A stretch of 28,207 nucleotides of DNA from Nitrospiraceae bacterium (GCA_039916745.1 JBDSKU010000477.1:1-28207), one strand, 5' to 3'; positions 1-17,315 are shown, numbered from the stretch's first letter. Translations and numbers: made by a program. Notes: a model not told the origin generated them from the letters alone.

Positions 1-693
1 ATAGTCGCATTTAATTTTTCTGACTTCTTCTCGAGAAAGTTCCTTCTTGTTTTTGGCTGCCTGCTCCAAACCTTTCCTGAACACCGCACGCTCGCCTCGG
101 TAGGTGGCCAACGAATAGTCCCATGGCAGGCATTCAAGGGCCCCATCCTCTTTCTCAACATCCTTCAAGTAGAGCATCACAATGACACAAGTCCCGGGGC
201 CTCCATCGGCGTGCCACAACTCGGAACCTGCCGGATCTCCTCTGCGATTTTCTGATTTGTAGAGCATGCCATAAAATATTTTGAAGTTGGCTTTGAATAT
301 CTCCTTTAAAAACGACTCCAGTGATCTCTTGAAGAGTTGTTCGATTTCCGGGAACGTCGTGTATATCTCCTTCAGGTATTGCCCTCGTTCGTTCCAAATT
401 TCAAGACCGGCCTGTTCTTCATCTTGAATTTTCCTGAAAATCGACTGCGCCAACTGTTGATTCTCTTGAGTCCAGAAAGAGGCAACATTCTTAGCCTGAA
501 AATCCTGCACGGCTTTTTGAACCTCAGGGCAACTCTTAGCTCGTTCCGTAAAACCTTGGCGACAATGGTCAAGATAGTTGGAATAGCGATACGCTTGCCT
601 CCAACCCAATCGTGAGCGATGTTTCTCAATGGACCGTAGACTCAGGTAATCCACCACCGTATCTTTCAATTTTCGAAAAATAGACACGCTCAT
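1..693 (-). CDS. 2OG-Fe(II) dioxygenase / PhyH-like protein (3' end outside window)
   Basis: Not in ORF track. Manual translation from ATG at 693 (SD GGGAG upstream) is open for 231 codons to base 1: MSVSIFRKLKDTVVDY...SELWHADGGPGTCVIVMLYLKDVEKEDGALECLPW... WHxD (205-216) followed by hydrophobic strand-YLxD...G-x-L-x-x-L-P is the PhyH/2OG-Fe(II) jelly-roll pattern. Confidence 0.8.
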   Translation of the reverse strand, partial: MSVSIFRKLKDTVVDYLSLRSIEKHRSRLGWRQAYRYSNYLDHCRQGFTERAKSCPEVQKAVQDFQAKNVASFWTQENQQLAQSIFRKIQDEEQAGLEIWNERGQYLKEIYTTFPEIEQLFKRSLESFLKEIFKANFKIFYGMLYKSENRRGDPAGSELWHADGGPGTCVIVMLYLKDVEKEDGALECLPWDYSLATYRGERAVFRKGLEQAAKNKKELSREEVRKIKCDY

Positions 694-950
694 TTGCTGG
701 CTCCCTGGTTAGCCAATCTTAGCCGGCCGCACCTTTATGGACCTGAACGACGCGTTCCAATAATTTGAGAGCACCTGCTGTTGCTCCTTTTGGAATGACC
801 ACCGCCTCACTGGATCCTGCCGAATCATTTCGGCGTTAGAGATCGAAGCGTTCTGGCTCCAATGCTCCATTGGGAACCGACCGCTCACGCACGGCGCAGC
901 TCCCTCCATTCCAATGAGACTGGTCATACCTGGAGCCGGACGAGGAGCCA

Positions 951-2198
951 TTATGGCCATCCCTTTCCAATTGTGATGTACTCTGCACTGCGATCGTATT
1001 CGAGAGTATCTGTCGCTTCAAAACTGCCGGACAATCCAGGCGCTTGATGATCGCTTATTTCTCTTAGCTCATGCCTGGCGCTCCATCCGTTAAACTCCCA
1101 CTTTCCGACCTCAGTCTGTATCCAGAACTTTGGATTGCGATGCTGATCGAGCATAAACTGCAACGACTTTGGCGCAATGCCTAGCCACGCGCAAAACTGC
1201 CCATGATATTTGAGCGGCGCTTGTTCGTGCTTACGAATAAGGCGTAATCCCTTCTCGCGGCTAATCCTGCCGAATCGAATTTCTCGACTGACATGATCGG
1301 TGACTTTTGAATAACCATGTTTGTAGAGCTTTAGCTGATCATGCAAATCCATATAGTTAAAACAATCGACAAAATCATAGCAGTCAAAGGTGCGATTGAA
1401 GACAGAAGTCTTGTACCCATACTCGCGCATCATCTGCTCATGCTGCGCCTTGGGATCCCACCTTACGTAGTTACCCAAGTAGATGCCCTTCACTCCTACT
1501 GCGTTCAGGTCGCGATCGTCAGGATAGCGATACTGCCAGACGTCTTCTTCCTTGAGAGTATCGAAGATGGACAAGAGATCATCGGCCTCATGTCCCATCA
1601 AGTCATGATCCTTTCGGTAGCGACGGGTCATCTCGACCTCATGCTCATGGGAAAACATCCCAACCTGCTCAAGCCCCTGGTGAGCACCCCAGATAATTAA
1701 TGGGACCTTATATCGAACAGCCGTCTGAACCGGGAATACCGTTTGGCCCGCTAAAATAGGCCAGTACATACTGCCGAACTGCAGCAGAGTGCTCCGGGTA
1801 ATATTCTTTACCGAAACGGGATTGACGTTCTGACAAAGGATGTCGCAGTTGAATCGAATGCGAAGATTCGAAAGGTTGCGGATACCGAGCGGCGTATTGA
1901 AATATTTGTTATAGGTCACTAGCAATGGATTGAGACCCAACCGCTCCTTCACCATGTAAATGATGTAGTAAGAATCCTGTGCGCCGGTCACAGGAACGAT
2001 GCAATCGTAATTTCGGCCGTCAGTACTGCGATATGGTGCCACAAGCTGGGTCAACTTCTCCCACCGAGGTGCCCAATCGAGATTATCCTTTTCTTCATGA
2101 ATGAGGCATCCGGAGCAAAGGCCTTGATCATCCAGCATGAGTCCGAGCGGATGGTCCGTAGAATAAAAACAACGACGACAAACCTGTGGATTAGACAT
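951..2198 (-). CDS. N-acetyl sugar amidotransferase (WbpG/WbuX/PseA-like), degenerate PP-loop copy
   Basis: N-terminal CRRC...CSGC, YDCIVPVTGAQDS (PP-loop position), LLVTYN, WGAHQG, YLGNYVRWD, LKLYKHGYSKVTDHVSREIRFGRISRE; start overlaps hisF stop by 8 nt. Confidence 0.85.
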   Translation of the reverse strand: MSNPQVCRRCFYSTDHPLGLMLDDQGLCSGCLIHEEKDNLDWAPRWEKLTQLVAPYRSTDGRNYDCIVPVTGAQDSYYIIYMVKERLGLNPLLVTYNKYFNTPLGIRNLSNLRIRFNCDILCQNVNPVSVKNITRSTLLQFGSMYWPILAGQTVFPVQTAVRYKVPLIIWGAHQGLEQVGMFSHEHEVEMTRRYRKDHDLMGHEADDLLSIFDTLKEEDVWQYRYPDDRDLNAVGVKGIYLGNYVRWDPKAQHEQMMREYGYKTSVFNRTFDCYDFVDCFNYMDLHDQLKLYKHGYSKVTDHVSREIRFGRISREKGLRLIRKHEQAPLKYHGQFCAWLGIAPKSLQFMLDQHRNPKFWIQTEVGKWEFNGWSARHELREISDHQAPGLSGSFEATDTLEYDRSAEYITIGKGWP

Positions 2199-2979
2199 CA
2201 GTCGTGAGGGAATACATTGATTCGTAACTTGGAAGGCGCATTGGCATACCTATCAATTGCGTTTTGATCTTCTGAATGGCATGCTCCCTATAGCTCAGAA
2301 AGTTTCCCACAGCCACGGCAGCCATGCGCGGCTGCGAGAGGAGCTCAATCAGCTGACCAGGCTCACTCAGCCCGCCAAAAGCGATTAGAGGGATTTCAGC
2401 CGGAAGTGAAGCATGGGCACTCAACCTGCGGTCAAAGCCTCCGGGCTGCCCTTCATGCTGCCAATCAATGACGAGTAGTTCCGAGACTATGCCCAATGTG
2501 ACGGCATCCAGATCTTTAGCCGAAACTTGAGTTGAGACTTTTGTGCGGTAATCCAGCCATTCGATACGCTGATCGCGATAGGAAAGCGGCAACGAGGCAA
2601 TCACCGCCTGCGCCCCAAGTTGGCGTGACAACCCCCGCACAATTTCAACATCATCGTGCAGAAGGGCATCGACACAGAGGCGGTCCGCGCCTAACCTAAT
2701 CACTTGCAAACCATCCTCCACTGATCGGATTCCGCCACCATATATCAGCGGTGTTCCCAGACCCAATTGCCCCAGTCGCCCCAGGAGCTTGAAGTCGGGA
2801 CCTAGCCGGCCGGAGGATCGATCGATGCTCAGAACGAAGATTTCATCCGCGCCCCATCGGTCCAGGTTTTGGACCAGGCATTCTGGCTTTCCCAACGGCA
2901 AATAGCGCCGATAGCCAAACGACTGAACCGCCCAGCCATTTTTCACAATGACTGTTCCAATCAAACGTTTCTTAAGCAT
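2191..2979 (-). CDS. hisF: HisF-like cyclase paralog (glycan-locus HisF2/WbuZ type)
   Basis: MLKKRLIGTVIVKNG start, GADEIFVLSID, PLIYGGGIRS, PLIAFGG, AVAVGNFL TIM-barrel motifs; adjacent to HisH-like gene. Paralog, not the histidine-operon copy. Confidence 0.85.
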   Translation of the reverse strand: MLKKRLIGTVIVKNGWAVQSFGYRRYLPLGKPECLVQNLDRWGADEIFVLSIDRSSGRLGPDFKLLGRLGQLGLGTPLIYGGGIRSVEDGLQVIRLGADRLCVDALLHDDVEIVRGLSRQLGAQAVIASLPLSYRDQRIEWLDYRTKVSTQVSAKDLDAVTLGIVSELLVIDWQHEGQPGGFDRRLSAHASLPAEIPLIAFGGLSEPGQLIELLSQPRMAAVAVGNFLSYREHAIQKIKTQLIGMPMRLPSYESMYSLTTDV

Positions 2980-3583
2980 GACACAATCCTGAAATCAGAC
3001 TTTTCAACAGTTCCTTTCCTGGCCTCTGACTCTTTTCAGGATGAAACTGCAATCCCACGACACTACCCCGGCGAACAACAGAAGGAAAAGCCTTGTGATG
3101 CCTCGATAGACCAATCTGATATTCCGATGGCCCCCGGTAAGCAAAGGAGTGATTGAAATAAAACACTTGTCCATCACTAGCCTGGAACAACGGGTCCTGC
3201 AGGACACATTCGATAGAATTCCAACCGATATGCCATTGCGGGTTGATCAGCGGCACCACCTCGCCCGGGATCAATCCAAGCCCCGTCGTGTACTGATGCT
3301 CGTACGAAGCATCGGCAAGGAGTTGCATCCCCAGGCAGAAGCCGATGATTGGGCGCTGCAAGCGGGCTTGCTCCTGCAGATAACTAACCAAACTGAGGCT
3401 GTGAAGCGCTTTCATTCCACTTGGGAAGGCACCGACTCCCGGAAGCACCAGCACATCCGCTTCATTTAAGACGGCCTGATCGTTGCTGACACGCACACGA
3501 TAATTCAGTTCACGTAAACTATGAACCACAGAAGCGTGGTTGCCCATGTGATAATCCACAACGCAGACAGTCCTCGAACTCAC
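2972..3583 (-). CDS. hisH: Class I glutamine amidotransferase, HisH-like (HisH2/WbuY type)
   Basis: VVDYHMGN, LVLPGVGAF, GFCLGMQ (nucleophile Cys), YFNHSF, QFHPEKS (His-x-Glu). Start corrected from 3709 to GTG at 3583, which forms a GTGA overlap with the upstream stop. Confidence 0.9.
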   Translation of the reverse strand: MSSRTVCVVDYHMGNHASVVHSLRELNYRVRVSNDQAVLNEADVLVLPGVGAFPSGMKALHSLSLVSYLQEQARLQRPIIGFCLGMQLLADASYEHQYTTGLGLIPGEVVPLINPQWHIGWNSIECVLQDPLFQASDGQVFYFNHSFAYRGPSEYQIGLSRHHKAFPSVVRRGSVVGLQFHPEKSQRPGKELLKSLISGLCHA

Positions 3584-4710
3584 AAGCCGACCCCTACCTT
3601 GTATTTTCGATGAATGGAGCCATTCTCTTCTATGCGGAACAAGTCTTTGTTGACGGATGAATGCACCTGCTTCCAGAACTCGGTGACAGGAATGTCGATA
3701 TAGGCGCAAAAACTTCCGATATATTCGTCACTGCATGAGTCGTCGTAACGCTCGACAAGTTCGATTCCCCGCTCACGCGTCATGCGGCCCTGGCGAATTG
3801 CTTCATTGGCATAATCTGTCACCCGGCCAAAACCAAACTTGTAGTACTTGATCATTTGATTCAGTGTGACCCAGTCCTCATCCAGCGCGGTGACACCAAA
3901 AAGATCTCCTGTGTTCTCAACGGTATCCTCGCGGATTTGCAAGCCATTGGAAACGGAATACATTCCGTTGTTGACAAGAGACCAGTCTCCAAGAAACCAG
4001 CCTAGATACACGATCTGCAGGCCATGGGCGTCGAACTCCTCGGGCGAGGGATACCGATAGGGAATCAGATCTTCCGGAGGCAAACCGGCATCAATCATCC
4101 AGTCAGCTGCGGCACCAGACAGGGTATTCATGTAGCGCAGGTTGTTACCGTCGTAACCGGTACGCCCTAGCGTTTTCAGGTCACCCAACTGCAGGCCCGG
4201 GTTCTCGCCCCACAGGATCAGCGAAATGCCATACCGAATCGCCAGTTGGGGCACCGAGCTGAACAACGTCAACTCGGTAGATCTCGCCCAATTGGTAAAA
4301 CGGGCAAAGGATTCGCGCATGAGACGTTGCCATGTACCCGGCGCGGGTGCCGACAGCACGACATCGAACCCCAGCTCGATCAAATTCGAGATATTGTCCA
4401 CGCCACGCTGAGTGACTTGCTGTGGAGGGTAACTCAGACAAGCCAGCAATGGCCTGAGGCCGAGCTTATCCCTGACCCAAAGTGCTTGGCGCGTGCTGTC
4501 CTTTCCTCCGCTCACTCCGATAATACAATCGAAATACTGCCCAGATCTGCGGCGATATTGACGAAGAAGATCTTCCAGTATCTCGTAGCGTTCCTGCCAA
4601 TCAACGTATTGGAGCTGACGGAAATAATGACAGGCCGGGCAAATGCCTTCGTCGGTGAATTGCGCGTTGGGCCTAGTATCCGGCTGGATGCAGACCTTGC
4701 AGTACTTCAT
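3580..4710 (-). CDS. N-acetyl sugar amidotransferase (WbpG/WbuX/PseA-like), intact PP-loop
   Basis: MKYCKVC...CPAC, FDCIIGVSGGKDS (PP-loop, 4495-4512), WGENPG, YYKFGFGRVTD, IRQGRMTRE. ATG at 4710 preferred over GTG at 4731. Confidence 0.88.
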   Translation of the reverse strand: MKYCKVCIQPDTRPNAQFTDEGICPACHYFRQLQYVDWQERYEILEDLLRQYRRRSGQYFDCIIGVSGGKDSTRQALWVRDKLGLRPLLACLSYPPQQVTQRGVDNISNLIELGFDVVLSAPAPGTWQRLMRESFARFTNWARSTELTLFSSVPQLAIRYGISLILWGENPGLQLGDLKTLGRTGYDGNNLRYMNTLSGAAADWMIDAGLPPEDLIPYRYPSPEEFDAHGLQIVYLGWFLGDWSLVNNGMYSVSNGLQIREDTVENTGDLFGVTALDEDWVTLNQMIKYYKFGFGRVTDYANEAIRQGRMTRERGIELVERYDDSCSDEYIGSFCAYIDIPVTEFWKQVHSSVNKDLFRIEENGSIHRKYKVGVGL

Positions 4711-4720
4711 ACAGCACTCG

Positions 4721-5605
4721 TCACAAATCACGCAGATGCTGAATTCCCCGCTGCGGCAATGCGCAGCGGGGCGCCCAGGGTGGATTGGTTGAAATTACGC
4801 GTCGATTTGCGTGAAGAGCAACGACCATGGCAAATGATTGACAGCCGACGACCCAGTCGGCCCAGGCAATCGCCTCGGCGAGGGAACTAGACGTATCGAT
4901 GGTCAGATTGAGTTCGCCCGAACGACTTAGCCATGAAGCGTATTTCCCGGAAGGATCTGACGGGTGGGAACGCAAGCGAACTTCAGGGGTGTGGCCCAAA
5001 CCCAGGGCGCCAACTCGCTCCAAGAAAAAGTCGAGGGCTTGAAATTCTCCCGGCTCTTCATTGTTCCCCCAAGGCTGCCGAATAGGCTCCAGCACATACA
5101 AGATATGGCTGCCTGGTCTTTCGTTTGGTTCGGACGACAGCGCATTAATCTGAGCAACCAATCCCTCCAAATAGCGATTGGGCAACAACACTACCGGCAG
5201 ATTAGGGAAACACCGCACTGCTTCAGTTTGGGCATCTTCATCCGCAACAAAAAGCTCATCGGGCAGGACCTCCTCCCCATTGCGAATAAAACGCTCACGG
5301 TAATTGACCCAATGATCGACCACTCCAATACTGAAAATGCCTAGCGCTCCAGCCATACGACGTGCCTCATGCTCCAAGTCACTTGCCCAGCCCGTGCCAC
5401 TCAGCAACATGGCCGCACCATCAAGTGCGTCGGACAACGATTCATTTTTCCAATTTGGGAAGGTGGCAGACCACAACGCCATGGCCGGGCCCTGCAGACA
5501 GGTTCGGACCGTTAGGTTGGGCTGATTCTTAAGCCATCCGAGGATAAGATTAGTGGCGCCTGCATCATGGGCAACAACTGCGAGAGGAGAAGACAGGCTA
5601 GTCAT
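4721..5605 (-). CDS. Hypothetical GT-B-like protein, candidate nonulosonate transferase
   Basis: 294 aa from ATG 5605 (8-nt overlap with GNAT stop). Motifs VVAHDAGA, VVDHWVNY, LPDELFVAD, LYVLEP, VRLRSHPS, ADWVVGCQSFAMVVA resemble a two-Rossmann GT-B fold with an HP motif; function inferred. Confidence 0.55.
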   Translation of the reverse strand: MTSLSSPLAVVAHDAGATNLILGWLKNQPNLTVRTCLQGPAMALWSATFPNWKNESLSDALDGAAMLLSGTGWASDLEHEARRMAGALGIFSIGVVDHWVNYRERFIRNGEEVLPDELFVADEDAQTEAVRCFPNLPVVLLPNRYLEGLVAQINALSSEPNERPGSHILYVLEPIRQPWGNNEEPGEFQALDFFLERVGALGLGHTPEVRLRSHPSDPSGKYASWLSRSGELNLTIDTSSSLAEAIAWADWVVGCQSFAMVVALHANRRVISTNPPWAPRCALPQRGIQHLRDL

Positions 5606-6140
5606 CTCTGAACTTTGCAAAGTAGAGAATGTCCTGAGCTTCCCCCTCAATAATTTCCTGTCGTACCCTCACTGCCTCAAGATGCATCCCTGAGCGTTCC
5701 ATAATCTTGATCATGCCCACATTACACCTGACCGTTCCTCCAGTAACTTTCCGGAGTCCCCTCTTTTCGAACAGAAATGACATCAGGGTCATCCACGCAT
5801 CGAGGCCTAGACCTCGTCCCCAATACGCTTGATCGCCAAGCAGAACCCCCAAGTCAGCAGTACCATGGGTCGGCGAAACATACGCCGTAATTGTGCCAAC
5901 AACTTTCCCGCCGCCTCGCACACGGACCGCAAGAAACATGTTCTCCGTCCCGTCAAAGGAGCGCAGGTATTTCAGGCAGGTGTTCGAATCATGCTGATGT
6001 AAGCGTTGGTTGCTGAAACGCACAACCTCAGGATCGCGCAACCAGCCAAGATGCTCCTCGGTAATGTCCGACTCAGCAAAAGGAGTGAGTATCGTCCGCG
6101 CCCCCGTCAGCTCGCAAAAATTGTTGGTCACTACGGTCAT
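5598..6140 (-). CDS. GNAT N-acetyltransferase (RimJ/RimL-like, PseH-like fold)
   Basis: WLRDPEVVRF, ADLGVLLGDQAYWGRGLG (acetyl-CoA binding R/QxxGxG), LRKV, N...ERSG. Confidence 0.85.
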   Translation of the reverse strand: MTVVTNNFCELTGARTILTPFAESDITEEHLGWLRDPEVVRFSNQRLHQHDSNTCLKYLRSFDGTENMFLAVRVRGGGKVVGTITAYVSPTHGTADLGVLLGDQAYWGRGLGLDAWMTLMSFLFEKRGLRKVTGGTVRCNVGMIKIMERSGMHLEAVRVRQEIIEGEAQDILYFAKFRDD

Positions 6141-6152
6141 CCTGCCTATGGG

Positions 6153-7448
6153 CTATTTATCCACCAGACTACTCATCCGATCCCATACCTTATGAAACGC
6201 CGTGACAATACGATCAATGTCCTCGCTGGAAAAATCATACACACACATCCCAATGCTGAGATAGCTATTGTCCTGAAGTTTCTCGGCGACCGGACAAATG
6301 CCTTTGCGATAATCAACATCGCGCTTGCAGATCTCAGATGTCCAGGGGAATCCCTTGGTGCCGTAGGCCATCTTTTGCTGGTACATTGGCAAGAGATGAA
6401 GATTCTGATAACTCTTCCCAATCGGAACACCCTCTGCCTGCAACGCCTCATAGATGCGACCGCGAGTGACCTGCAGTAACTCCTCATCCAGCACCAGGGG
6501 ATAGATATAGTAGGCATGGGTGCATCCTGGCTTGATCACCGGGGGGCGAAGCCCAACCAGGCCATGCAGACCGGAGGTAAGGCGCTCGGCCGCATGCTGG
6601 CGGGTGCCCACGAACCCCTTCAGCTTTTTTAGTTGTTCGATGCCAATCGCGCACTCAATTTCACCAAGACGAAAATTATATCCGATCATATTGCTAAGGT
6701 TGGTCACGCCCTTGTCGCCCACCACAGCTTCCGCATGGTTTCTGATCAATTGCAGGCGCTCGGCAATCTCGTCGTCATTGGTCACAAGGATTCCACCTTC
6801 GCCGGTATGGATATGCTTGTGGAAGTTCAGACTGTACCCGCCGACATCCGAAAGAGTTCCGGCATATTTACCCTTGACCATCGCGCCTGGCGCCTGCGCG
6901 GCATCGGTAATGACCTTGAGCCCATGCTTGCGGGCGATGGCCATCAGGACATCCGTATTGGCTGAGTGGCCGAAGATATCGACCGCCATGATGGCCTTGG
7001 TATAGGGCGAGATGGCGGATTCGACTGCAACGGGATCAAGACAAAATGTTTCAGACTCTATGTCGGCAAAGACCGGAATGGCATTCCAGTGCAGAATGGC
7101 CGTCGCGCTGGCGCACATCGTCCAGGGGCTTACGATCACTTCGTCGCCCGGCTCGATACCTATGGCGCCAACGGCGGCGATCAACCCCGAAGTCCAGGAA
7201 TTAACAGTGACTACATGCTTGACGCCGAAATACGCCTCACAGGCCCGTTCGAATTCCTGCACCTTTGGACCGCCGTAGAAGTCCGGGGTCCAGCAACCAA
7301 GGTATTGAGACAAGACACCACTCTCCACCACCTGTTTGGCAGCCGCTACTTCTTCTGGACCAATCGAATTGTAGCGCTTGAACGGGCGCTCTATAGTTTT
7401 GGGCCCGCCAAACAGTGCCAGCGGTTCGTCGATCGGGCTGTTGCTCAT
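6153..7448 (-). CDS. DegT/DnrJ/EryC1/StrS PLP-dependent sugar aminotransferase
   Basis: VNSWTSGL, GIEPGDEVIV, PVFADI, DAAQAPGA, YSLNFHKHIHTGEGG (PLP lysine), GYNFRL, CPVAE. Confidence 0.92.
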   Translation of the reverse strand: MSNSPIDEPLALFGGPKTIERPFKRYNSIGPEEVAAAKQVVESGVLSQYLGCWTPDFYGGPKVQEFERACEAYFGVKHVVTVNSWTSGLIAAVGAIGIEPGDEVIVSPWTMCASATAILHWNAIPVFADIESETFCLDPVAVESAISPYTKAIMAVDIFGHSANTDVLMAIARKHGLKVITDAAQAPGAMVKGKYAGTLSDVGGYSLNFHKHIHTGEGGILVTNDDEIAERLQLIRNHAEAVVGDKGVTNLSNMIGYNFRLGEIECAIGIEQLKKLKGFVGTRQHAAERLTSGLHGLVGLRPPVIKPGCTHAYYIYPLVLDEELLQVTRGRIYEALQAEGVPIGKSYQNLHLLPMYQQKMAYGTKGFPWTSEICKRDVDYRKGICPVAEKLQDNSYLSIGMCVYDFSSEDIDRIVTAFHKVWDRMSSLVDK

Positions 7449-7516
7449 GAGAGAACCTTTACATTGATATCACGACCCAAGGTGCCGGATGCACCCGATA
7501 GCAGTTCAGCGGACAA
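7445..7516 (-). pseudogene. Possible remnant of an internally deleted NAD-dependent epimerase/SDR gene (23-aa mini-ORF)
   Basis: TTG-start mini-ORF MSAELLSGASGTLGRDINVKVLS* fills the 57-bp gap; contains a GxxGxxG Rossmann motif and ends in an ATGA overlap with the aminotransferase start. Confidence 0.3.
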
Positions 7517-8507
7517 GGCCGGACTTCTCTTTGATTCGTTCGCAAATCTCTTGCGCCGCGAGCGCTGACCGACCCGTACTTGCCAACTCGGCCCCACTGC
7601 CTAATGCCTCGTGAATGTTACTAACAGCGCCGAGCATGGCTAAGAGGTAGCCCCCTGCATGCCGCTCGCCTACGTCGAGGGTTCGATATCCCAGAAAATG
7701 CGGACTCTCATTCGTGCGGCGTACCCGCCATGCCAACCCCCCTTCCTCCATGGTCAGCACCCCCCGCTCCGTAACAATCTGCAACTCGAATAAAGCGAAG
7801 TCGCTTGCATGGCCACAAACCAGGTGAATTGGTATGGTCTCGACCCCGGAGAGAATTGCAGGAACTGACGGATCATCGGGCAGGCCATCCCATACCGGAG
7901 TCCCTGTTGCCACGACACTCACAGGACCTAGCAGATGATGGAGCAAGTCGATCATGTGGGATCCGTTATTGAGAACCCCCTTATTGTACAGACCCACGAC
8001 TGTGCGAACTGACCCCCAAACACCGCTGGCCAGTTCGCGGCGAATACGCGTGATCTCCGGATCCCAACGACGCGTGTGGTTTATCACCAGGGGTACGCCG
8101 GCCGCTTCGCAGGACTGAACCAGCTCGGCCGTCGTTGCAGCACTTGGCGTGACGGGCTTTTCGCAAAAGATCACGCGAGGCTCCAGGCGAAGCGCAGCAA
8201 GAACATCGCTGGCGTGACAGTCCGTCGGCGAACAGATACTGACCACATCGAAACGGGAACCGGACTCGACCAGAGCATCCATTGAGGAATGGCCACTAGC
8301 GATGCCCCAATGGCGCATGAACTCCCTACGACGAGTCTCGTCGGGATCTACACAGGCCGACAACCGATACCGCCCATGACGTCTGAATGCACCTGCGTGG
8401 GTGCATGGTGCGGCATCTGGTGCACGAGCAGCATCAAAGCCGCCGGCAATATTGCCGCAGCCAACGATCAGAACAGCAAGCGCATCAGAACGCGTAGCAA
8501 TCGGCAT
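7506..8507 (-). CDS. Gfo/Idh/MocA family NAD-dependent oxidoreductase
   Basis: VLIVGCGNIA, DVVSICSPTDCH, IFCEKP, NHTRRW, NGSHMIDL. Confidence 0.9.
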   Translation of the reverse strand: MPIATRSDALAVLIVGCGNIAGGFDAARAPDAAPCTHAGAFRRHGRYRLSACVDPDETRRREFMRHWGIASGHSSMDALVESGSRFDVVSICSPTDCHASDVLAALRLEPRVIFCEKPVTPSAATTAELVQSCEAAGVPLVINHTRRWDPEITRIRRELASGVWGSVRTVVGLYNKGVLNNGSHMIDLLHHLLGPVSVVATGTPVWDGLPDDPSVPAILSGVETIPIHLVCGHASDFALFELQIVTERGVLTMEEGGLAWRVRRTNESPHFLGYRTLDVGERHAGGYLLAMLGAVSNIHEALGSGAELASTGRSALAAQEICERIKEKSGLVR

Positions 8508-8543
8508 GGATGCTCAGTTCATCTCCCGGCGCCTTCGTCTGAT

Positions 8544-9605
8544 TCACACTAACAACTCCCACCCAAGCGCCGTTCCTCGCTGCACATCCTTGCTGACCCG
8601 TCTCCCCAGCACGTGCTCAAGATATTTCGGCGCCAACCCCAGCCCCGGTCGAATAGCGCGCACATTCTCATCAGTCAACAGATCCCCTGCTTTAATGTCC
8701 CGAACCACGTAGAGTGATCGCCGGAACTGGATCGACTGCTTCTCCGCTTCCAAGGGACCGTAACTCACCTGCCCCAGCGCCTGCCAGGCACTTGTGGTTT
8801 CGATCACGAGTTGCGCCATTTCAGCTGGTTCCATGGAGAAGGTGCTGTCGACGCCACCATCGGCACGGTTGAGGGTGAAATGCTTTTCAATCACGGTGGC
8901 GCCCAGTGCGACACCGGCCACCGCAACGCCGACCCCCATGGTGTGATCGGACAGTCCCACTTCACAGTCGAAGAGTTCGCGCAGGTGCGGGATGGTCAGA
9001 AGGTTCGTATTCTCGGGCGTAGCCGGGTAGGTGCTGGTACACTTGAGCAGGACCAGATCCTTGCAGCCAGCCTCACGTGCGGCGCAAACAGTTTCGTCCA
9101 ACTCGGCTATAGTGGCCATGCCGGTAGAGATGATCAGCGGCTTGCCGGTAGCAGCGACCCGGCGAATCAGCGGCAGGTCGGTATTCTCGAAGGATGCGAT
9201 CTTGTAGCACGGCACATCCAGGCTTTCGAGAAAATCTACCGCCGTGTCATCGAAGGGCGTGCTGAATGGAATCATGCCCAATCCTCGTGCCCGGTCGAAG
9301 ATGGGCTTGTGCCACTCCCACGGAGTATGGGCTTTGCTATAGAGCTCGTAGAGCGACGTGCCCGCCCACAGGCTCTTGGGATCGCTGATGTGAAACTCCT
9401 GCTCGTCCAGATCGATCGTCATCGTATCTGGCGTATAGGTCTGGATTTTCAGCGCATGGGCACCAGCCCTGGCAGCAGCCTCGACGATTTCAAGCGCCCG
9501 CTCAAGCGATTGATTATGATTGCCGGACATTTCGGCGATGATAAAAGGCGTAGAGGCGCAACCGACAAGGCGACCGGCAATCCTTACGTGAGAGCGCTTA
9601 TTCAT
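8544..9605 (-). CDS. pseI: Pseudaminic acid synthase
   Basis: PFIIAEMSGNHNQS, KIQTYTPDT, AHTPWEWH, FSTPFD, YKIASFE, LLKCTSTYP, GLSDHT, IEKHFTL, C-terminal SAF domain (RRSLYVVRDIKAGD...RPGLG). Start corrected to ATG 9605 (GGGGAG SD, 8-nt overlap). Confidence 0.93.
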   Translation of the reverse strand: MNKRSHVRIAGRLVGCASTPFIIAEMSGNHNQSLERALEIVEAAARAGAHALKIQTYTPDTMTIDLDEQEFHISDPKSLWAGTSLYELYSKAHTPWEWHKPIFDRARGLGMIPFSTPFDDTAVDFLESLDVPCYKIASFENTDLPLIRRVAATGKPLIISTGMATIAELDETVCAAREAGCKDLVLLKCTSTYPATPENTNLLTIPHLRELFDCEVGLSDHTMGVGVAVAGVALGATVIEKHFTLNRADGGVDSTFSMEPAEMAQLVIETTSAWQALGQVSYGPLEAEKQSIQFRRSLYVVRDIKAGDLLTDENVRAIRPGLGLAPKYLEHVLGRRVSKDVQRGTALGWELLV

Positions 9606-10245
9606 TCTCCCCTTTTTCAATCGTGAGCAGATACCGCTTGCCGCGATAGTCAAAGAACGCTGGATACCTCGTATTATCTACAACTCGCAGCAAATCAAAT
9701 TGCTCTGCCAGCGTTTTATTGGGATCGAGTCGGCTGTCTTTTGATGTTCTTTTCGGCATATACGGTCCAGGATCACCGCACTGTGCCGTCGGCGTGATCG
9801 CCCCAAACTGCTCCACAGCCTGTGTCATCAGCGATAGTTCGGCGGCAAAGAGCTTTTCATTGATTTCAGGAAGAAGCTCATGGCCTTCAAGGAAGAACTC
9901 TGTCTTAATCCAAATTGCACCACTATCGACAGGATCATTTGCCTCCAGGAGACAAAGAGTGATCTGATTCGCTCCGCTCAGGATTGCCCAAACATATGGA
10001 GACCACCCCCTGCCCTTCGGCAAATCGCTGGCATGCAGGACGAGCGTAGCCCTATATTTGGTTCGTTCTGCGCCTCGAATGATCTGGCTGCAAGAAACAA
10101 GAAAGAGAATATCTCCACCCTGTAACCCCGCTTTGTCATAACACAGTACGGCGGTATGCCCCCTGAAAGACATCTCGGCAATCCAGCCCCCAAGACTCTT
10201 GACTACAGGATGACTGGGATCGGTGCAGAGTACGGAAATTTCCAT
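9598..10245 (-). CDS. Formyltransferase-family protein (putative sugar N-formyltransferase, PseJ-like role)
   Basis: LFLVSC, LVLHASDLPKGRGWSP (variant of HxSLLPxxRG), LLEANDPVDSGAI (DxG), C-terminal YMPKRT...FDLLRVVDNTRYPAFF. Start corrected to ATG 10245. Confidence 0.8.
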   Translation of the reverse strand: MEISVLCTDPSHPVVKSLGGWIAEMSFRGHTAVLCYDKAGLQGGDILFLVSCSQIIRGAERTKYRATLVLHASDLPKGRGWSPYVWAILSGANQITLCLLEANDPVDSGAIWIKTEFFLEGHELLPEINEKLFAAELSLMTQAVEQFGAITPTAQCGDPGPYMPKRTSKDSRLDPNKTLAEQFDLLRVVDNTRYPAFFDYRGKRYLLTIEKGENE

Positions 10246-10246
10246 A

Positions 10247-11323
10247 TCAATAGCCCAATGCTTGACAGAGCCTAGCACTACCCAGCCCATCAACGAGCGC
10301 ATAGGATTTTTCGGACAATGCCGCTAAACGACTTTGGTCATTCATCAAATCAAGAATTGCCCTGCGCATCAATGGCGCACTGGCTATCTCTAGCTTGCCG
10401 AGATAGATATTCGCACCCAACAGATCCAGTGTTCTCGCGATGTCAATTTGGTTGTCAGCCAGCGCAACAATCAATGCGGGCAGACCCACACAACACCGCT
10501 CCCAACTAGCAGCCCCCCCTGCCCCGATCGCCAAGTCGGCAGCCGCCATTAACTCAGCCATCCGAGCAGTTTGAACATGGCACGTAAAGCGGTGCTGAGC
10601 GCTTTCAGACTCAATCTGCTCACGACAAGGATGCTGCGCACCGATCACGACGTCCACATGCAAGTCGTAACCGCCGATATGAGCTAGTGCCTCGACGGCC
10701 CGAGCTGTGCAATTGCCAGCATCCACGCCGCCGAAAAACACCAGCACACGCGTGACCGGCCCTGTACGCGGCGTGACCTGCTCACGCAATTGACGGAACT
10801 TCTCGCGCAGCAACGCGTGGCGTGGGCCTAATAATAGCCTGCAATGCGCGGGCACTTTGCCGGTGTAACGGGTGTCCATGTCCGCATAGAGATTCTGATC
10901 CAACAGGACATCGCAGTCGTGCTGACGATTCGCGATGTCATCGATGGCCAGAATATTCTTGGCCGTTTGCCGAAGTGCGGACTCCCAACGAGCATCCAAG
11001 GCATAGTGGTCGACAACCAGCCAGTCCCAGGTTTGATCGGACAGCGCCTGGACGGTGGCTTGCGCATCAACGTGCTGGCTGGTGCCAAGCCAGTGGGACT
11101 GAGCCAGATCGCCTGAGATCGCCTCGCTTGAGCTGCTATTGAGCGGCATGAACTCATGCTCCTTTGCCGCCAGCATGTCCCTTAAATGCCCTGGCAGGTG
11201 ACGACTGAGAACGCGGATCTGTGTGCCGCGTTGTTTCAGTGCGTCCGCTAAGGTCAGGCAACGCATGAAATGACCGGTGCCGATTTGACGTGAGGCATCG
11301 ACGCGAAAGACGACTCTTCTCAT
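10247..11323 (-). CDS. pseG: UDP-2,4-diacylamido-2,4,6-trideoxy-beta-L-altropyranose hydrolase
   Basis: VFRVDASRQIGTGHFMRCLTLA, LVVDHYALD, AIDDIA, LLGPRHALLR, VFFGGVD, ADLAIGAGGAASWERCCVGLP, ADNQ. Confidence 0.92.
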   Translation of the reverse strand: MRRVVFRVDASRQIGTGHFMRCLTLADALKQRGTQIRVLSRHLPGHLRDMLAAKEHEFMPLNSSSSEAISGDLAQSHWLGTSQHVDAQATVQALSDQTWDWLVVDHYALDARWESALRQTAKNILAIDDIANRQHDCDVLLDQNLYADMDTRYTGKVPAHCRLLLGPRHALLREKFRQLREQVTPRTGPVTRVLVFFGGVDAGNCTARAVEALAHIGGYDLHVDVVIGAQHPCREQIESESAQHRFTCHVQTARMAELMAAADLAIGAGGAASWERCCVGLPALIVALADNQIDIARTLDLLGANIYLGKLEIASAPLMRRAILDLMNDQSRLAALSEKSYALVDGLGSARLCQALGY

Positions 11324-11359
11324 GCGCCAAGCCTTAAAACAGAAATGCTCCGTGCGGAT

Positions 11360-12058
11360 TCAGTCATCCTGGATCTGAGAAATGGCCTTCATCATCAACT
11401 CGGCTCGTCGCCAATCTGCCTCGGTGTCGATATCCTGTACCCGCCAGCGTGGAATGATGACCGGGAAAGAATGCCGATCGAAAATTCGTTTGCGCTCTAT
11501 CCAGGCAGTAGGCCGTCCCCAGTAGAACTGCCCGGCATCGTGCAGCGCCATAGGAAGATCCTGCGAACGGGTGGAGAACTGATCCGGAAAGAACATTTCA
11601 AGCCCGCCGTCAGGGTGGAGATGGAAAGAACGGAAAATGGGCGCAGCAAACTCTGTGACTGTAAACGCATAAGCCCAGGGACCAGACTGCAGCGCCACAA
11701 GACCACGGTTGAGATCCTCAACGCGCACAAAGGGTGCAGTGGCATAGAGACAGCAGACGGCTTCGACCGGCCACTGTTGGTCAAGCATCCATTGGGTGGC
11801 ATGAGCGATCACGTCAGTCGTGCCTGCGAAGTCATTGGATAACTCCACTGGCCGCAGGAAAGGCACCTCGGCTCCAAAGGCTTTGGCCACTTCGGCGATT
11901 TCGCAATCGTCCGTAGAGACAAGGATGCGATCGAACAAATTGCTCTCGCAAGCTGCTGCAATGGAATGAGCAATCATGGGTTTTCCTGCAAAGGGCTTGA
12001 TATTCTTGCGCGGAATGCGCTTGGATCCACCACGAGCGGGGATGACGGCTATTTTCAT
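11360..12058 (-). CDS. pseF: Pseudaminic acid cytidylyltransferase
   Basis: IAVIPARGGSKRIPRKNIK, VSTDD, PFLRP, CCLYATAPF, RSQDL, HDAGQFYWG, QDIDTEADW. Confidence 0.93.
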   Translation of the reverse strand: MKIAVIPARGGSKRIPRKNIKPFAGKPMIAHSIAAACESNLFDRILVSTDDCEIAEVAKAFGAEVPFLRPVELSNDFAGTTDVIAHATQWMLDQQWPVEAVCCLYATAPFVRVEDLNRGLVALQSGPWAYAFTVTEFAAPIFRSFHLHPDGGLEMFFPDQFSTRSQDLPMALHDAGQFYWGRPTAWIERKRIFDRHSFPVIIPRWRVQDIDTEADWRRAELMMKAISQIQDD

Positions 12059-13218
12059 GCTCTCGTCGCCAGTCGCAAAGCAGCCACAACCAGGTCCTGT
12101 TGCGCTTCCGTCAGCCCCGGGTACATCGGCAAACTAATCGCCTCCGCATAATAGTTTTCGGCCTGCGGAAAATCGCTCAAATTGAACCCTAAGCGCGCAT
12201 AGTAGGGCTGCCGATATACCGGGATGTAATGCAGGTTCACGCCGATACCGCTGGCCCGCATATATTCAAACACCTCTCGCTGGCTACCCTTCATACTATC
12301 CAGCCGCAAACGGACAACGTATAGATGTAAGGCAGAGTAACTTTCCGCATGTTGCCACGGTGTAGTGACGGGCAGACCTTTTAGCCACTTGTCATAACAC
12401 GCTGCCAGAACATGTCGCTTGCCGACATACTCATCTATACGTTGCATTTGGCTCAGTCCCAGCGCTGCCTGAAAATCTGTCATCCTGTAATTGAAACCTA
12501 ATTCGAGCTGCTGGTAGTACCAGGGGCCGTCGGAAGCGTGGGTCATCTCAGCTGCATCCCGAGTGATGCCATGGCTGCGCAGATGCACCATGCGCTTGGC
12601 CAGTTCAGAATCATTGGTGAGCGCCATACCACCCTCACCGGTCGTGATGATCTTGACCGGATGAAAACTGAACACTGTGACATCGCTGTAGCGACCGTTG
12701 CCAATGGGCTCACCCCGGTACCTGCCCCCAATGGCATGTGAAGCATCCTCAATGATCTTGAAACCATAGCGTTGACTCAATGCATGGATGCCGGCCATAT
12801 CGCACGATTGACCACACAAGTGTACCGGGATCACCACTTTAGGCAAGCAACCTGACTTCTCCGCTTGCGTCAACTTCTCCGCCAATCTTTCTACGCTTAG
12901 GTTGTACGTGAGCGGATCGATATCCACAAAATCAACCCGCGCACCACAATAGCGTGCACAGTTAGCACTGGCCACAAAGGTGATGGGGCTGGTCCATACC
13001 CAATCACTTGCCCCCACGCCCAGCGCAAGGCAGGCAATATGCAATGCACTAGTAGCACTGTTAACCGCTACCGCATACTGCGCGCCGCAGTAACCAGCAA
13101 TAGCTTTTTCAAACGCTGGTACGGCAGGGCCTTGAGTAAGGAAGTCCGAACGCAACACATCCACTACCGCCTGGATGTCGGCTTCGGAAATGTCTTGGCG
13201 TCCGTAGGGGATCATCAT
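12055..13218 (-). CDS. pseC: UDP-4-amino-4,6-dideoxy-N-acetyl-beta-L-altrosamine transaminase
   Basis: IPYGRQDI, LTQGPAV, NSATSALH, EDASHAIG, FSFHPVKIITTGEGG, LRSHGITR, LGFNYRMTD; ATGA overlap with pseF. Confidence 0.93.
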   Translation of the reverse strand: MMIPYGRQDISEADIQAVVDVLRSDFLTQGPAVPAFEKAIAGYCGAQYAVAVNSATSALHIACLALGVGASDWVWTSPITFVASANCARYCGARVDFVDIDPLTYNLSVERLAEKLTQAEKSGCLPKVVIPVHLCGQSCDMAGIHALSQRYGFKIIEDASHAIGGRYRGEPIGNGRYSDVTVFSFHPVKIITTGEGGMALTNDSELAKRMVHLRSHGITRDAAEMTHASDGPWYYQQLELGFNYRMTDFQAALGLSQMQRIDEYVGKRHVLAACYDKWLKGLPVTTPWQHAESYSALHLYVVRLRLDSMKGSQREVFEYMRASGIGVNLHYIPVYRQPYYARLGFNLSDFPQAENYYAEAISLPMYPGLTEAQQDLVVAALRLATRA

Positions 13219-13220
13219 CT

Positions 13221-14219
13221 TCAGAACTTACCGAGCTTGTCGCGGTTCTGAGCAATCCAAGTCCGCAAAGTCTCGATGCTCATCCAGTCGGTGTTGTTAT
13301 CCGAGCAGTAGATAAAGTCCGGCGCGACCTTTTTCCCGCCGTTGATACGCTCGGGATCTTCGCTCCATTTATAAATCGCAGGAAGAATCTTATAGTGATC
13401 CTTGTATTCGTACGTATACAGCGCGTCCTCAGAGCCGATCATCTGCTCGTGGAGCTTTTCGCCGGGCCGGACTCCGACAATGTCTTGGCGTACATCGGAC
13501 GCAACTGCACGGGCAATATCGGTCACCTTCATCGAAGGGATCTTCTTCACATAGATCTCCCCGCCGACCATGTCCTCAAGCGCATGCCAGACGAGATCCA
13601 CCCCCTGCTCAAGCGTAATCATGAAACGAGTCATGCGCTCATCCGTAATTGGCAGTACCCCTTTGTCGGCGATGGAAAGAAAAAACGGGATTACTGAGCC
13701 CCGCGAACCCATCACATTGCCGTAACGAACCACTCCAAAACGGGAGTCGTGGTGGCCGGCGTAAGAGTTGCCTGCAACGAATAGCTTATCGGAGGTCAGT
13801 TTTGTTGCACCGTAAAGATTGGCCGGGCTACTCGCTTTATCGGTCGAAAGTGCGACGACTCGCTTTACCTTTCGATCGATGCACGCATCGATCAGATTCA
13901 TCGCACCCAGCACATTGGTCTTCACGCACTCAAATGGGTTGTACTCGGCCGTAGGCACAATCTTGGTAGCTGCGGCATGAACCACGTAATCAATGCCGTC
14001 GAGAGCACGCAAGAGACGCTCTTTATCGCGCACATCACCGATGAAAAACCGCACCCGTTCGTCGGCACTGAACAGTTTGGCCATCTCCCACTGCTTCATC
14101 TCATCGCGCGAGAATATGACAAGCCTGCGAGGATTATATTTGGCCAACGTCATGGGCACAAAAGTGTGCCCAAAGGAGCCGGTACCACCTGTCACTAAAA
14201 TTGACTTGTCATTCAGCAT
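13221..14219 (-). CDS. pseB: UDP-N-acetylglucosamine 4,6-dehydratase (inverting)
   Basis: TGGTGSFG, FSRDEMKQ, GDVRD, HAAATKIVP, AEYNPFECVKTN, STDKA, YGATK, RYGNVMGSRGSVIPFF, RPGEKLHE. Confidence 0.95.
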   Translation of the reverse strand: MLNDKSILVTGGTGSFGHTFVPMTLAKYNPRRLVIFSRDEMKQWEMAKLFSADERVRFFIGDVRDKERLLRALDGIDYVVHAAATKIVPTAEYNPFECVKTNVLGAMNLIDACIDRKVKRVVALSTDKASSPANLYGATKLTSDKLFVAGNSYAGHHDSRFGVVRYGNVMGSRGSVIPFFLSIADKGVLPITDERMTRFMITLEQGVDLVWHALEDMVGGEIYVKKIPSMKVTDIARAVASDVRQDIVGVRPGEKLHEQMIGSEDALYTYEYKDHYKILPAIYKWSEDPERINGGKKVAPDFIYCSDNNTDWMSIETLRTWIAQNRDKLGKF

Positions 14220-14410: not shown

Positions 14411-15139
14411 TCAGGAAGATGCCTTCTCCAGCACGACGAGGATGCGAAAGGCGACGTATCGACTCAATAGGCCCAGGAGGCGTTCAAGAGCTAGGAGGGA
14501 ACGTGCCATCCACATGGGCATCAAAGAAGGATGGTCAAAGCCTCCACTGAGTGGATAAGCGAAGAAGGCCAATCGGTGGTGCCGGAGTTTCTTCAAAGCT
14601 GGATACAGCTCATGAAACCGTCGGCGTGATCGTTCGAACAGGATCGTCGCAATGGCCTGGTTCGCGTCAAATGGTTTTCGGGCAGACCTCGTAGGGCTCA
14701 AGGCAAAAGGATCTTGACTGAAATCCACCGGCTCTGGATGCAGGAAATGGTAGACGGGCCACGAGCAGACCGAGATATATGGGTCCATAATGATGATGCG
14801 GCCGCCAGGCCGCAGCACACGGAGTGCCTCATCGAAGAAGTATCGAACATTTTCAAGATGGTGCAGGGTGTCAAAAAGCACGATGTTGGCAAAACTCCCG
14901 TTTGTGAATGGGAGCCGCTGCGCATCCACGACAGCGTCTAACCACGGCAACCTGACGATATCGGTACAGATCACGGACGGCGCACATTCCTTGAGATTCC
15001 CTGTCCCACCACCGACTTCGAGGGTCGGTCCCGGCTGAAGCCATCCGGCAATCTCTCGATACCATTCCCCGTAGAGCATCCGGAGCACGGGCTTCTCCTG
15101 CCAGACCATCTGGTGCCGCCGTAAAATCTCATCGGACAT
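14411..15139 (-). CDS. Class I SAM-dependent methyltransferase
   Basis: LEVGGGTG (motif I), VDAQRLPF, FDTLHHL, VLRPGGRIIIMDP. Start corrected to ATG 15139 (TAATG overlap with upstream stop). Confidence 0.85.
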   Translation of the reverse strand: MSDEILRRHQMVWQEKPVLRMLYGEWYREIAGWLQPGPTLEVGGGTGNLKECAPSVICTDIVRLPWLDAVVDAQRLPFTNGSFANIVLFDTLHHLENVRYFFDEALRVLRPGGRIIIMDPYISVCSWPVYHFLHPEPVDFSQDPFALSPTRSARKPFDANQAIATILFERSRRRFHELYPALKKLRHHRLAFFAYPLSGGFDHPSLMPMWMARSLLALERLLGLLSRYVAFRILVVLEKASS

Positions 15140-17219: not shown

Positions 17220-17315
17220 CACTGAACCCTCAGCGCTCTGAATCTGACTACGGCGACGAGCATCTCTTTACAAACCAAAGCAAACCTCTTCACCCAAATA
17301 GACCGGTTACAGACG

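Follow-up and report, generated by a model that had tools for sequence, protein, structure and literature searches.

The window analyzed here, 28,207 nucleotides long, is the whole of contig JBDSKU010000477.1 from the metagenome-assembled genome (MAG) of a Nitrospiraceae bacterium (GCA_039916745.1; 478 contigs, 3.3 Mb, 84% complete by estimate). It encodes a pseudaminic acid (Pse) pathway followed by a block of four genes: a Gfo/Idh/MocA oxidoreductase, a second DegT-family aminotransferase, a GNAT acetyltransferase, and a 294-amino-acid GT-B-fold protein, referred to here as U294. While the Pse core and the principle of acetamidino installation are already known, the four-gene block is a widespread, biochemically unsolved cassette of which the window holds one ordinary member. 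Taken together, the region may well be one operon that makes and decorates a pseudaminic acid-type nonulosonate, activated by cytidine monophosphate (CMP), for a surface glycan, with the block adding a third nitrogen; we place this reading just short of an even chance. Our best guess for the product, made with the same reserve, is a pseudaminic acid bearing a 7-N-formyl and an acetamidino group, to which a further acetamido group is added at C8 or C4.

The Pse assignments below rest on NCBI curated equivalog cut-offs (NCBIfam/TIGR), and all five core enzymes scored above them, as the first-pass annotation of this DNA had claimed; its oxidoreductase, second aminotransferase, and GNAT also stood at the family level.
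13221..14219, minus strand: PseB, UDP-N-acetylglucosamine (UDP-GlcNAc) 4,6-dehydratase (inverting); TIGR03589, 525 bits, cut-off 408
12055..13218, minus strand: PseC, 4-aminotransferase; TIGR03588, 573 bits, cut-off 424
11360..12058, minus strand: PseF, CMP-pseudaminic acid synthetase; TIGR03584, 311 bits, cut-off 206
10247..11323, minus strand: PseG, UDP-sugar hydrolase; TIGR03590, 309 bits, cut-off 154
9598..10245, minus strand: short formyltransferase-like protein at the place of PseH, likely start ATG at 10245; PF00551, 28.5 bits, cut-off 26.1
8544..9605, minus strand: PseI, pseudaminic acid synthase, likely start ATG at 9605; TIGR03586, 510 bits, cut-off 340
7506..8507, minus strand: block gene 1, Gfo/Idh/MocA NAD-dependent oxidoreductase; PF01408, 60 bits, no equivalog
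6153..7448, minus strand: block gene 2, second DegT-family pyridoxal phosphate-dependent aminotransferase, 431 amino acids, not PseC; PF01041, 304 bits
5598..6140, minus strand: block gene 3, GNAT N-acetyltransferase, not PseH; PF13302, 63 bits, no PseH match at E ≤ 0.01
4721..5605, minus strand: block gene 4, the 294-amino-acid GT-B-fold protein U294; no Pfam or NCBIfam match, AlphaFold2 mean predicted local distance difference test (pLDDT) 90

The block was found by searching one genome per species with the GT-B family, which gave 130 confirmed places; 80 were fetched and the window proteins mapped onto them, and the 50 loci whose flanks reached at least 8 kb upstream and at least 5 kb downstream formed a well-flanked set. 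The order oxidoreductase-aminotransferase-GNAT-GT-B was the same and contiguous in every locus found, and was kept at 45 to 75% identity across phyla; among the well-flanked loci the oxidoreductase was present in 50/50 and the GNAT in 46/50. A NeuB-type synthase lay within 10 kb of the block in 48 of the 50, and in three loci (L012, L013, and L017) the block was inserted between pseF and pseG-pseI. Carriers included Alpha-, Beta-, and Gammaproteobacteria (Bordetella genomosp. 1, Herbaspirillum, Massilia, Devosia, Citromicrobium, Blastomonas, Methylobacter, and a Legionella MAG), Cyanobacteria (Microcoleus and Pseudanabaena), Verrucomicrobiota, and Bacteroidota, with cultured, harmless isolates in Herbaspirillum, Massilia, Devosia, Blastomonas, Citromicrobium, and Salinarimonas. 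Cultured strains with the Pse-type cassette include Herbaspirillum chlorophenolicum CPW301, Massilia sp. Root351, Devosia aquimaris CJK-A8-3, Blastomonas marina, and Citromicrobium bathyomarinum JL1455. The cassette that the first-pass annotation had singled out as unusually long is thus not unique: the same ordered cassette recurs in Proteobacteria, Cyanobacteria, Verrucomicrobiota, and Bacteroidota. Its view that the tailoring genes go with a nonulosonate pathway was upheld by the proximity to NeuB-type synthases and the occasional interleaving with pse genes. Our literature search, outside of which most subscription journals lie, found no paper on the four-gene block, on the twin-paralog amidotransferase set, or on the class B loci described next.

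Three pathway types accompany the block: a full Pse set, a PseB/RmlD-like/NeuB-like set, and a NeuB/NeuC/NeuA set. Class A, which includes the window (34 of the 50 well-flanked loci), reads PseB-PseC-PseF-PseG-X-PseI and then the block, slot X being formyltransferase-like in 11/34, a PseH-like GNAT in 7/34, and otherwise something else. Five class A isolate genomes held exactly one NeuB-family gene each, and the block therefore feeds no second synthase there. Class B (at least 10 loci; for example, L019 2512-13481 from Massilia sp. Root418, L009, L011, and L051) combines true PseB and PseF with an RmlD-like reductase and a NeuB-like synthase that reaches neither the NeuB nor the PseI cut-off; a small family 2 glycosyltransferase (GT2), the block, and a single WbuX follow, and a GatA-like amidase stands where HisH/HisF would be. 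Class B possibly leads to a fusaminic acid-type sugar (7-hydroxy, 9-deoxy; fusaminic acid is cited in PMC5595891). The third type is represented by a Sulfuritalea sp. MAG (L005), in which the block lies between a NeuB-like gene and a set comprising an ATP-binding cassette (ABC) gene, NeuB, NeuC, and NeuA, with no PseB in 20 kb. On the 5' side of the block (1-7200), this locus encodes an ATP-grasp protein and the NeuB-like synthase, together with a CysQ-like phosphatase, an LmbE/BshB1-like deacetylase, and a pair of unknown proteins; these upstream genes were absent from the other classes. Aminotransferase orthologs were up to 72% identical across pathway types (some class B loci versus the window), and the block probably does the same job in all three contexts.

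In the mechanism we propose for the window, PseB, PseC, PseG, PseI, and PseF supply the standard route from UDP-GlcNAc, as shown by family assignment. The formyltransferase-like protein would replace PseH and give a 7-N-formyl group (Pse5Ac7Fo type), and two WbuX paralogs with HisH and a HisF-like protein would form one glutamine-dependent complex converting one acetamido group to acetamidino, as PseA does with Cj1314c and Cj1315c in Campylobacter. The block oxidoreductase would oxidize a secondary hydroxyl (C8 or C4) of the nine-carbon sugar to a ketone, the second DegT enzyme would transaminate that ketone, and the GNAT would acetylate the new amine, yielding a 5,7,8- or 4,5,7-triacylamido nonulosonate. 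U294 would handle the nucleotide-activated product as a dedicated transferase or hydrolase, the least certain step. A PhyH-like oxygenase would be a lineage-specific extra, and three proteins encoded outside the window, namely a KpsC/S-like transferase, a methyltransferase, and an ABC transporter of the MsbA/PglK kind, would take care of transfer and export. An oxidoreductase, a DegT enzyme, and an acetyltransferase are the standard means of converting a secondary alcohol to an acetamido group (WbpB/E/D, GnnA/B, and NtdC/A). The C4 and C8 hydroxyls are common to the nine-carbon sugars of all three pathway types, and because C3 of a hexose destined for a synthase, its sole free position, becomes the ring oxygen position of the nine-carbon sugar, we infer that an extra amination at the hexose level would be unattractive.

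Precedents for oxidizing or transaminating an ulosonic acid itself are KdnA/KdnB (8-amino-Kdo) and RgNanOx/YjhC; KdnA, YjhC, and 5uhw/5ui9 were among the weak PDB matches of the block enzymes, and KdnB belongs to a different dehydrogenase family. Enzymes of the YjhC type (RgNanOx/YjhC) are Gfo/Idh/MocA proteins that oxidize C4 of sialic acid (PMC7535918). A sugar of the predicted kind occurs in the O-antigen of Tenacibaculum (Flexibacter) maritimum, which contains an 8-amino-3,5,7,8,9-pentadeoxy-nonulosonic acid (PMC3210612). That sugar is Pse-like (manno) with a third amino group, as would be expected from an oxidoreductase and an aminotransferase acting on Pse; for a second T. maritimum locus, only an aminotransferase, an oxidoreductase, and an acetyltransferase are listed (PMC9796276).

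Several observations weigh against this reading. No block enzyme had an equivalog or a close characterized relative. The NCBIfam matches of the oxidoreductase were generic (inositol 2-dehydrogenase, 71 bits, and, second best, archaeal UDP-GlcNAc 3-dehydrogenase, 45.8 bits; both far below cut-offs), and its PDB matches (inositol dehydrogenase, YjhC, and 5uhw/5ui9) were all weak, with E about 1e-9, and confined to the Rossmann part. The link to Tenacibaculum drew little from genome searches: in a sample of 301 Flavobacteriaceae genomes, from which T. maritimum may be missing, U294 had a match in 1 genome and the aminotransferase likewise in 1, and a protein search with a Flavobacteriales ortholog gave no named Tenacibaculum match. 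The gene logic, moreover, also mirrors the WbpB/WbpE/WbpD/WbpI/WbpG-HisH2-HisF2 route to a UDP-hexosaminuronate. Class B, finally, had no PseC and no PseG above cut-off genome-wide in five genomes, including that of the isolate Massilia sp. Root418. There the block aminotransferase, GNAT, and U294 might replace PseC, PseH, and PseG, which a hexose-level role would fit better; the lack of PseG favors either a hydrolase role for U294 or an unrecognized hydrolase, for which the class-specific GT2 is the sole candidate. This is the main counter-evidence.

The Wbp parallel corresponds to an alternative in which the block makes a separate 2,3-diacetamido-2,3-dideoxy hexose by WbpB/WbpE/WbpD logic (C3 oxidation of UDP-GlcNAc, transamination, and acetylation), U294 is a WbpI-like 2-epimerase or a transferase, the amidotransferase set yields a 3-acetamidino group as do WbpG/HisH2/HisF2 and AglXYZ, and Pse is the other sugar of the repeat unit. 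We consider this unlikely. The functions come in the order known from the Pseudomonas aeruginosa O5 set (WbpA/B/E/D/I, making UDP-ManNAc3NAcA), which shares the Gfo/Idh/MocA, DegT, and N-acetyltransferase logic and the amidotransferase set that follows; the archaeal UDP-GlcNAc 3-dehydrogenase match of the oxidoreductase and the presence of UDP-GlcNAc and UDP-2,3-diacetamido-glucuronate 2-epimerases among the top Foldseek matches of U294 point the same way, and the co-occurrence with Pse genes could come from whole cassettes moving by horizontal transfer. In contrast to the P. aeruginosa set, however, the window's locus has no WbpA-type dehydrogenase, its acetyltransferase is a GNAT rather than of the hexapeptide-repeat type, and U294 had no Epimerase_2 match at E ≤ 10. 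WbpE and QdtB gave the aminotransferase lower scores than did 4-aminotransferases, inosose aminotransferases, and KdnA; its PDB neighbors were 8gyh, perosamine synthetases, 2-deoxy-scyllo-inosose aminotransferases, and KdnA, the last three ranking above ArnB, WbpE, and PseC. The block is also tied to NeuB-type synthases, accompanying three nonulosonate pathway types and standing without one in only 2 of the 50 well-flanked loci, and the amidotransferase quartet occurs in legionaminic acid (Leg)-like loci that have no block.

Class B bears on a second alternative, that the block is a dehydratase-independent aldose supply. Here UDP-GlcNAc would be oxidized at C4, transaminated, and acetylated, and U294 would release UDP, in parallel to PseB/C/H/G or LegB/C/H/G with the 6-hydroxyl kept; a NeuB-type synthase would then give a 5,7-diacetamido nonulosonate with a 9-hydroxyl. 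With PseC and PseG above cut-off in 0/5 class B genomes, every gene would then have a job, and the constant company that U294 keeps with the other three genes would be explained. The first NeuB-like gene of L005 had no other aldose supply nearby (the second has NeuC), and the best family scores of the aminotransferase were to the C4 aminotransferases PseC, LegC, and ArnB. It scored 225 bits against the PseC model, below the 424 cut-off, at 29% identity to the window PseC. Against this supply role stand the full PseB/C/G set in class A, the window included, and the five class A isolates with one NeuB-family gene, in which two aldose lines would share one synthase and one cytidylyltransferase; hhalign, too, revealed no specific kinship between U294 and PseG. 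We rate it as improbable, about on a par with the separate hexose. The idea that the block duplicates PseC/PseH/PseG in class A was rejected, as that class has the full canonical set and the five isolates have a single synthase. Tailoring of the nine-carbon sugar is the reading we prefer.

U294 was described in the first-pass annotation as an orphan GT-B protein, a fair description. An alignment of its 1291 homologs in a large protein collection was fed to AlphaFold2 (pLDDT 90, predicted TM-score 0.84), and the predicted structure has two Rossmann-like domains with an interdomain cleft, as in GT-B proteins. Foldseek returned 63 PDB matches at E ≤ 0.001, and all 50 matches listed were GT-B-fold enzymes, with template modeling (TM) scores of 0.55 to 0.60 to UDP-GlcNAc 2-epimerases, LpxB, a polysialyltransferase, and MurG. 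No Pfam match was obtained for 24 family members even at E ≤ 10, including to PF02350 (Epimerase_2), and the U294 profile found nothing among PDB sequences. Three assignments were rejected. Membership of a named family found no match in Pfam at E ≤ 10 or in the PDB profile search and only generic GT-B proteins in Foldseek; a divergent PseG received 2% probability from hhalign against 44 PseG sequences, no better than unrelated GT-B proteins; and a role as sole nonulosonate transferase conflicts with the KpsC/S-like transferase that follows the cassette in at least 13 loci. A clearer representative of that protein (40.7 bits, cut-off 20) lies directly after the cassette in Bordetella genomosp. 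1, with homologs in at least 12 more loci, and by family it is the more likely nonulosonate transferase.

Downstream of U294 lie the genes of a putative acetamidino module.
3580..4710, minus strand: WbuX1, N-acetyl sugar amidotransferase with PP-loop SGGKDS; TIGR03573, 276 bits, cut-off 203
2972..3583, minus strand: HisH-type glutaminase subunit, likely GTG start at 3583; TIGR01855, 178 bits, cut-off 105
2191..2979, minus strand: HisF-like (WbuZ/AglZ-like) subunit; PF00977 (His_biosynth), 62 bits; WbuZ 108 and AglZ/HisF2 96.5 bits, both below cut-offs
951..2198, minus strand: WbuX2, WbuX-family paralog with PP-loop TGAQDS; TIGR03573, 295 bits, cut-off 203

The amidotransferase set of the first-pass annotation was sustained for both WbuX proteins and HisH, which exceed their cut-offs, but the HisF-like protein matched only the Pfam family His_biosynth; it is a paralog, the housekeeping hisF being on contig C75 (398 bits). 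The second amidotransferase is likewise present and above the WbuX cut-off, but its PP-loop is degenerate and it gives no argument for a second amidino group. WbuX1 and WbuX2 were 29% identical, and the canonical PP-loop was found in 44/44 WbuX1 orthologs, 0/38 WbuX2 orthologs, and 19/20 of the single WbuX proteins of class B. The four genes always occurred together (28 of the 50 well-flanked loci), and the same canonical plus degenerate WbuX pair with HisH and HisF was present in two Leg-like loci without the block. Because the degenerate WbuX2 is always paired with canonical WbuX1, HisH, and HisF, the four probably form one complex rather than pointing to two amidino groups, with WbuX2 a probable partner subunit of WbuX1. 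The predicted WbuX1-WbuX2 interface scored an ipSAE of 0.91 (best control, 0.00), a mark reached by 55 of 80 solved complexes and 3 of 110 mismatched pairs, although such predictions cannot tell family members apart and a paralog pair may score high by way of family homodimers, which counts against taking the score at face value. The idea that two amidotransferases mean two amidino groups was rejected on the PP-loop counts (0/38 canonical), the pairing in block-free loci, and the predicted interface. In our reading, the quartet serves nonulosonates in general as an acetamidino module and does not depend on the block. The window shares WbuX, HisH, and a HisF-like protein near a nonulosonate pathway with Campylobacter jejuni PseA and HisH/HisF (Cj1316c-Cj1314c), WbuX/Y/Z, WbpG/HisH2/HisF2, and AglX/Y/Z; unlike these, its set has four genes, with the extra degenerate-PP-loop WbuX, and its HisF-like protein falls below the WbuZ and AglZ cut-offs.

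At the N-acylation step, no window protein matched PseH (TIGR03585) at E ≤ 0.01. The gene that takes its place alternates with true PseH at the same position across loci, and by that placement the 7-N substituent is probably formyl (Pse5Ac7Fo type), N7 formylation being a reasonable inference from gene position. The first-pass annotation had called a formyltransferase here: a gene is indeed present in the PseH slot, but its family match is marginal and covers only the second half of the PF00551 domain (profile positions 80-181). The best PDB match was 1zgh, a 260-amino-acid Fmt-like protein with the same variant motif. The usual formyltransferase triad is Asn-His-Asp with an N-x-H motif; in the window protein (LHASDLPKGRG) the His is kept and Val, not Asn, stands two residues before it, while the Asp in VDSG may be the catalytic one. 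Because this Asn is missing, formyl transfer is not assured, a further point against the proposed product, and the protein is predicted to transfer a formyl or another acyl group onto the nitrogen of the 4-amino sugar.

The genes closest to the focal ones came from a MAG labelled Nitrospirota (GCA_030684575.1) with a 1.04-Mb contig (L001, L089, and L090), in which the flanking genes were 89 to 98% identical to those of the window. The PseG-X-PseI segment had been swapped between the window and this 97%-identical relative (window 8544-11323 versus L001 2268-6303): PseG was 27% and the synthase 36% identical, and the relative's synthase reached neither the NeuB nor the PseI cut-off. After this synthase come a true PseH (GNAT176, 105 bits, cut-off 93), to which the block GNAT is 26% identical, and an SGNH/AlgX-like protein, where the window has the formyltransferase-like gene instead. 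The swap marks the N-acyl step as an exchangeable slot, and the segment looks like a recombination hot spot setting the N7 substituent. A further near-identical copy was found on an 11.7-kb contig (L003, JAUYSD010000369.1) of a MAG labelled Sulfuritalea sp., whose cassette proteins were 96 to 97% identical to those of the Nitrospirota locus L001; this contig is probably mis-binned, and the Sulfuritalea bin holds its own 57%-identical copy (L006).

The relative also revealed how the locus continues. Downstream of the oxygenase-like gene it encodes a 540-amino-acid protein with a weak KpsC/S Capsule_synth match, a methyltransferase, and an MsbA/PglK-type ABC transporter, then a second NeuB, a 385-amino-acid oxidoreductase-like protein, a NeuC-like epimerase, and a NeuA-like cytidylyltransferase (L089 1-6200). 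The same downstream genes occur at 97 to 98% identity in the window's own MAG on contig C25 (1-7499), with the NeuC/NeuA pair on C122 (17375-19253); the locus therefore continues and holds a second nonulosonate scaffold. The first-pass claim of one sugar scaffold is accordingly true of the window itself, but not of the locus, which goes on to a second NeuB/NeuC/NeuA set. Genes of the wbpA/wbpI kind, which would tie the tailoring enzymes to a separate sugar, were looked for beyond the window, and no UDP-GlcNAc 6-dehydrogenase or WbpI-type epimerase was found in the relative's locus or the continuing contig. True PF03721 matches lay on other contigs or, in the relative, about 850 kb away, with only 20-bit N-terminal matches near the locus, and the one Epimerase_2 gene in the vicinity goes with NeuB and NeuA. 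Elsewhere in the window's MAG, two more loci related to nonulosonates, a trio of Gfo-like, DegT-like, and cytidylyltransferase genes (C147, 385-3440) and a PseB-like, Epimerase_2, and NeuB-like set (C326, 2196-6535) were observed, for a total of three NeuB-family genes in the MAG.

The remaining features of the operon are an oxygenase-like open reading frame (ORF) at its downstream end and three genes upstream of pseB.
1..693, minus strand: N-terminal 231 amino acids of a 312-amino-acid PhyH-like 2-oxoglutarate- and Fe(II)-dependent oxygenase candidate, truncated by the contig end; WHADGG (HxD) motif
14411..15139, minus strand: S-adenosylmethionine-dependent methyltransferase upstream of pseB in the same operon; PF08241 and PF13489; 89% identity in the relative
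15139..16611, minus strand: methyltransferase fused to a GT2 (AglJ/ArnC-like polyprenyl-phosphate sugar transferase type); PF00535, 88 bits, and PF13489, 68 bits; TIGR04182, 117 bits, below cut-off
16660..17172, minus strand: UpxY/RfaH-family transcription antiterminator; NF033644, 113 bits, cut-off 100

Since the window is a whole contig, the oxygenase-like ORF is truncated by the assembly; a full-length 312-amino-acid ortholog is present in L001, and the distal His candidate lies in the part seen only there. That ortholog resembled PhyH-named clusters (auto-named phytanoyl-CoA dioxygenase) by language-model feature score (0.98) and predicted-structure TM score (0.86), a lead rather than proof that the gene is PhyH-like. 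The dioxygenase assignment in the first-pass annotation thus has the HxD motif and this likeness in its favor, but the ORF had no hidden Markov model match, its L001 ortholog had no Pfam match at E ≤ 1, and no homolog was found in the other mapped loci, which places the gene outside the conserved cassette as a lineage-specific addition.

All long ORFs of the window, including all 15 named genes, were on the minus strand, every gene that the first-pass annotation named being where it had been placed. The short gaps and overlaps it described were confirmed from pseB to the second amidotransferase gene (spacing of -8 to +57 nt with likely start codons), and a 257-nt gap separates the latter from the oxygenase-like ORF. 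From 17172 downstream, the order is antiterminator, methyltransferase-GT2 fusion, methyltransferase, pseB-pseC-pseF-pseG, formyltransferase-like gene, pseI, the block, WbuX1-HisH-HisF-like-WbuX2, and the oxygenase-like ORF, with the antiterminator as the probable operon head; a promoter and terminator scan gave no signal above shuffled expectation. The fusion protein directly after the antiterminator (490 amino acids) was 92% identical in the relative and was not found in the other loci. The antiterminator gene is preceded by those for a MarR-EPS regulator and for several GT2/GT4 glycosyltransferases, as well as by two GT9 heptosyltransferase-like genes; the genomic setting is envelope glycan synthesis. 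An UpxY-family antiterminator adjoining a MarR-EPS regulator (16660-17985) thus stands at the head of a nonulosonate operon in a Nitrospirota-like genome, and the UpxY family is best known from Bacteroides capsule loci.

Compared with the CMP-Pse pathway of Helicobacter pylori and Campylobacter jejuni, five of six enzymes were matched here as equivalogs in one operon; the window differs in having a formyltransferase-like protein instead of PseH, and nine further operon genes. It is conceivable, if rather improbable, that nothing new is made: the product would be a described Pse derivative (Pse5Ac7Fo or Pse5Ac7Am), and the block would be unrelated or redundant, for example in salvage or a glycan assembly step. 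The chemistry proposed beyond the canonical enzymes is all deduced from sequence, and both Pse5Ac7Fo (PMC11040635) and acetamidino-Pse (PMC4690887) are known sugars, PseA having been linked to the latter in the literature. However, a block whose order is kept across phyla in nonulosonate operons, at the identities given above, is unlikely to be idle.

Nonulosonic acids occupy the outermost tips of bacterial surface glycans, where they influence how phages, immune lectins, and antibodies recognize the cell. The N-substituents of these sugars are chemically very varied, but for most of them the responsible genes are not known. The module described here occurs in more than 100 species representatives and well over 1000 metagenomic proteins, is tied to nonulosonate pathways, and has no assigned reaction, and its cultured carriers make the block directly testable. 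The pairing of a canonical with a degenerate WbuX offers a second, separately testable point on how acetamidino groups arise. It is possible, though we lean against it, that the block is the missing genetic basis for third-amino nonulosonates (at C8, as in T. maritimum, or at C4), a module that moves across phyla and upgrades several nonulosonate pathways, and that the window encodes an undescribed 7-N-formyl, acetamidino, triacylamido pentadeoxy-nonulosonate, for which the computed neutral monoisotopic mass is 360.16 or 361.15 Da. For comparison, Pse5Ac7Fo computes to 320.122 Da; exchange of an OH for NHAc adds 41.03 Da, and amidino formation shifts the mass by -0.98 Da. If a third amino group is indeed what the block adds, it would account for a sugar first known in 2003, and its enzymes could be used to make new sialic acid analogs.

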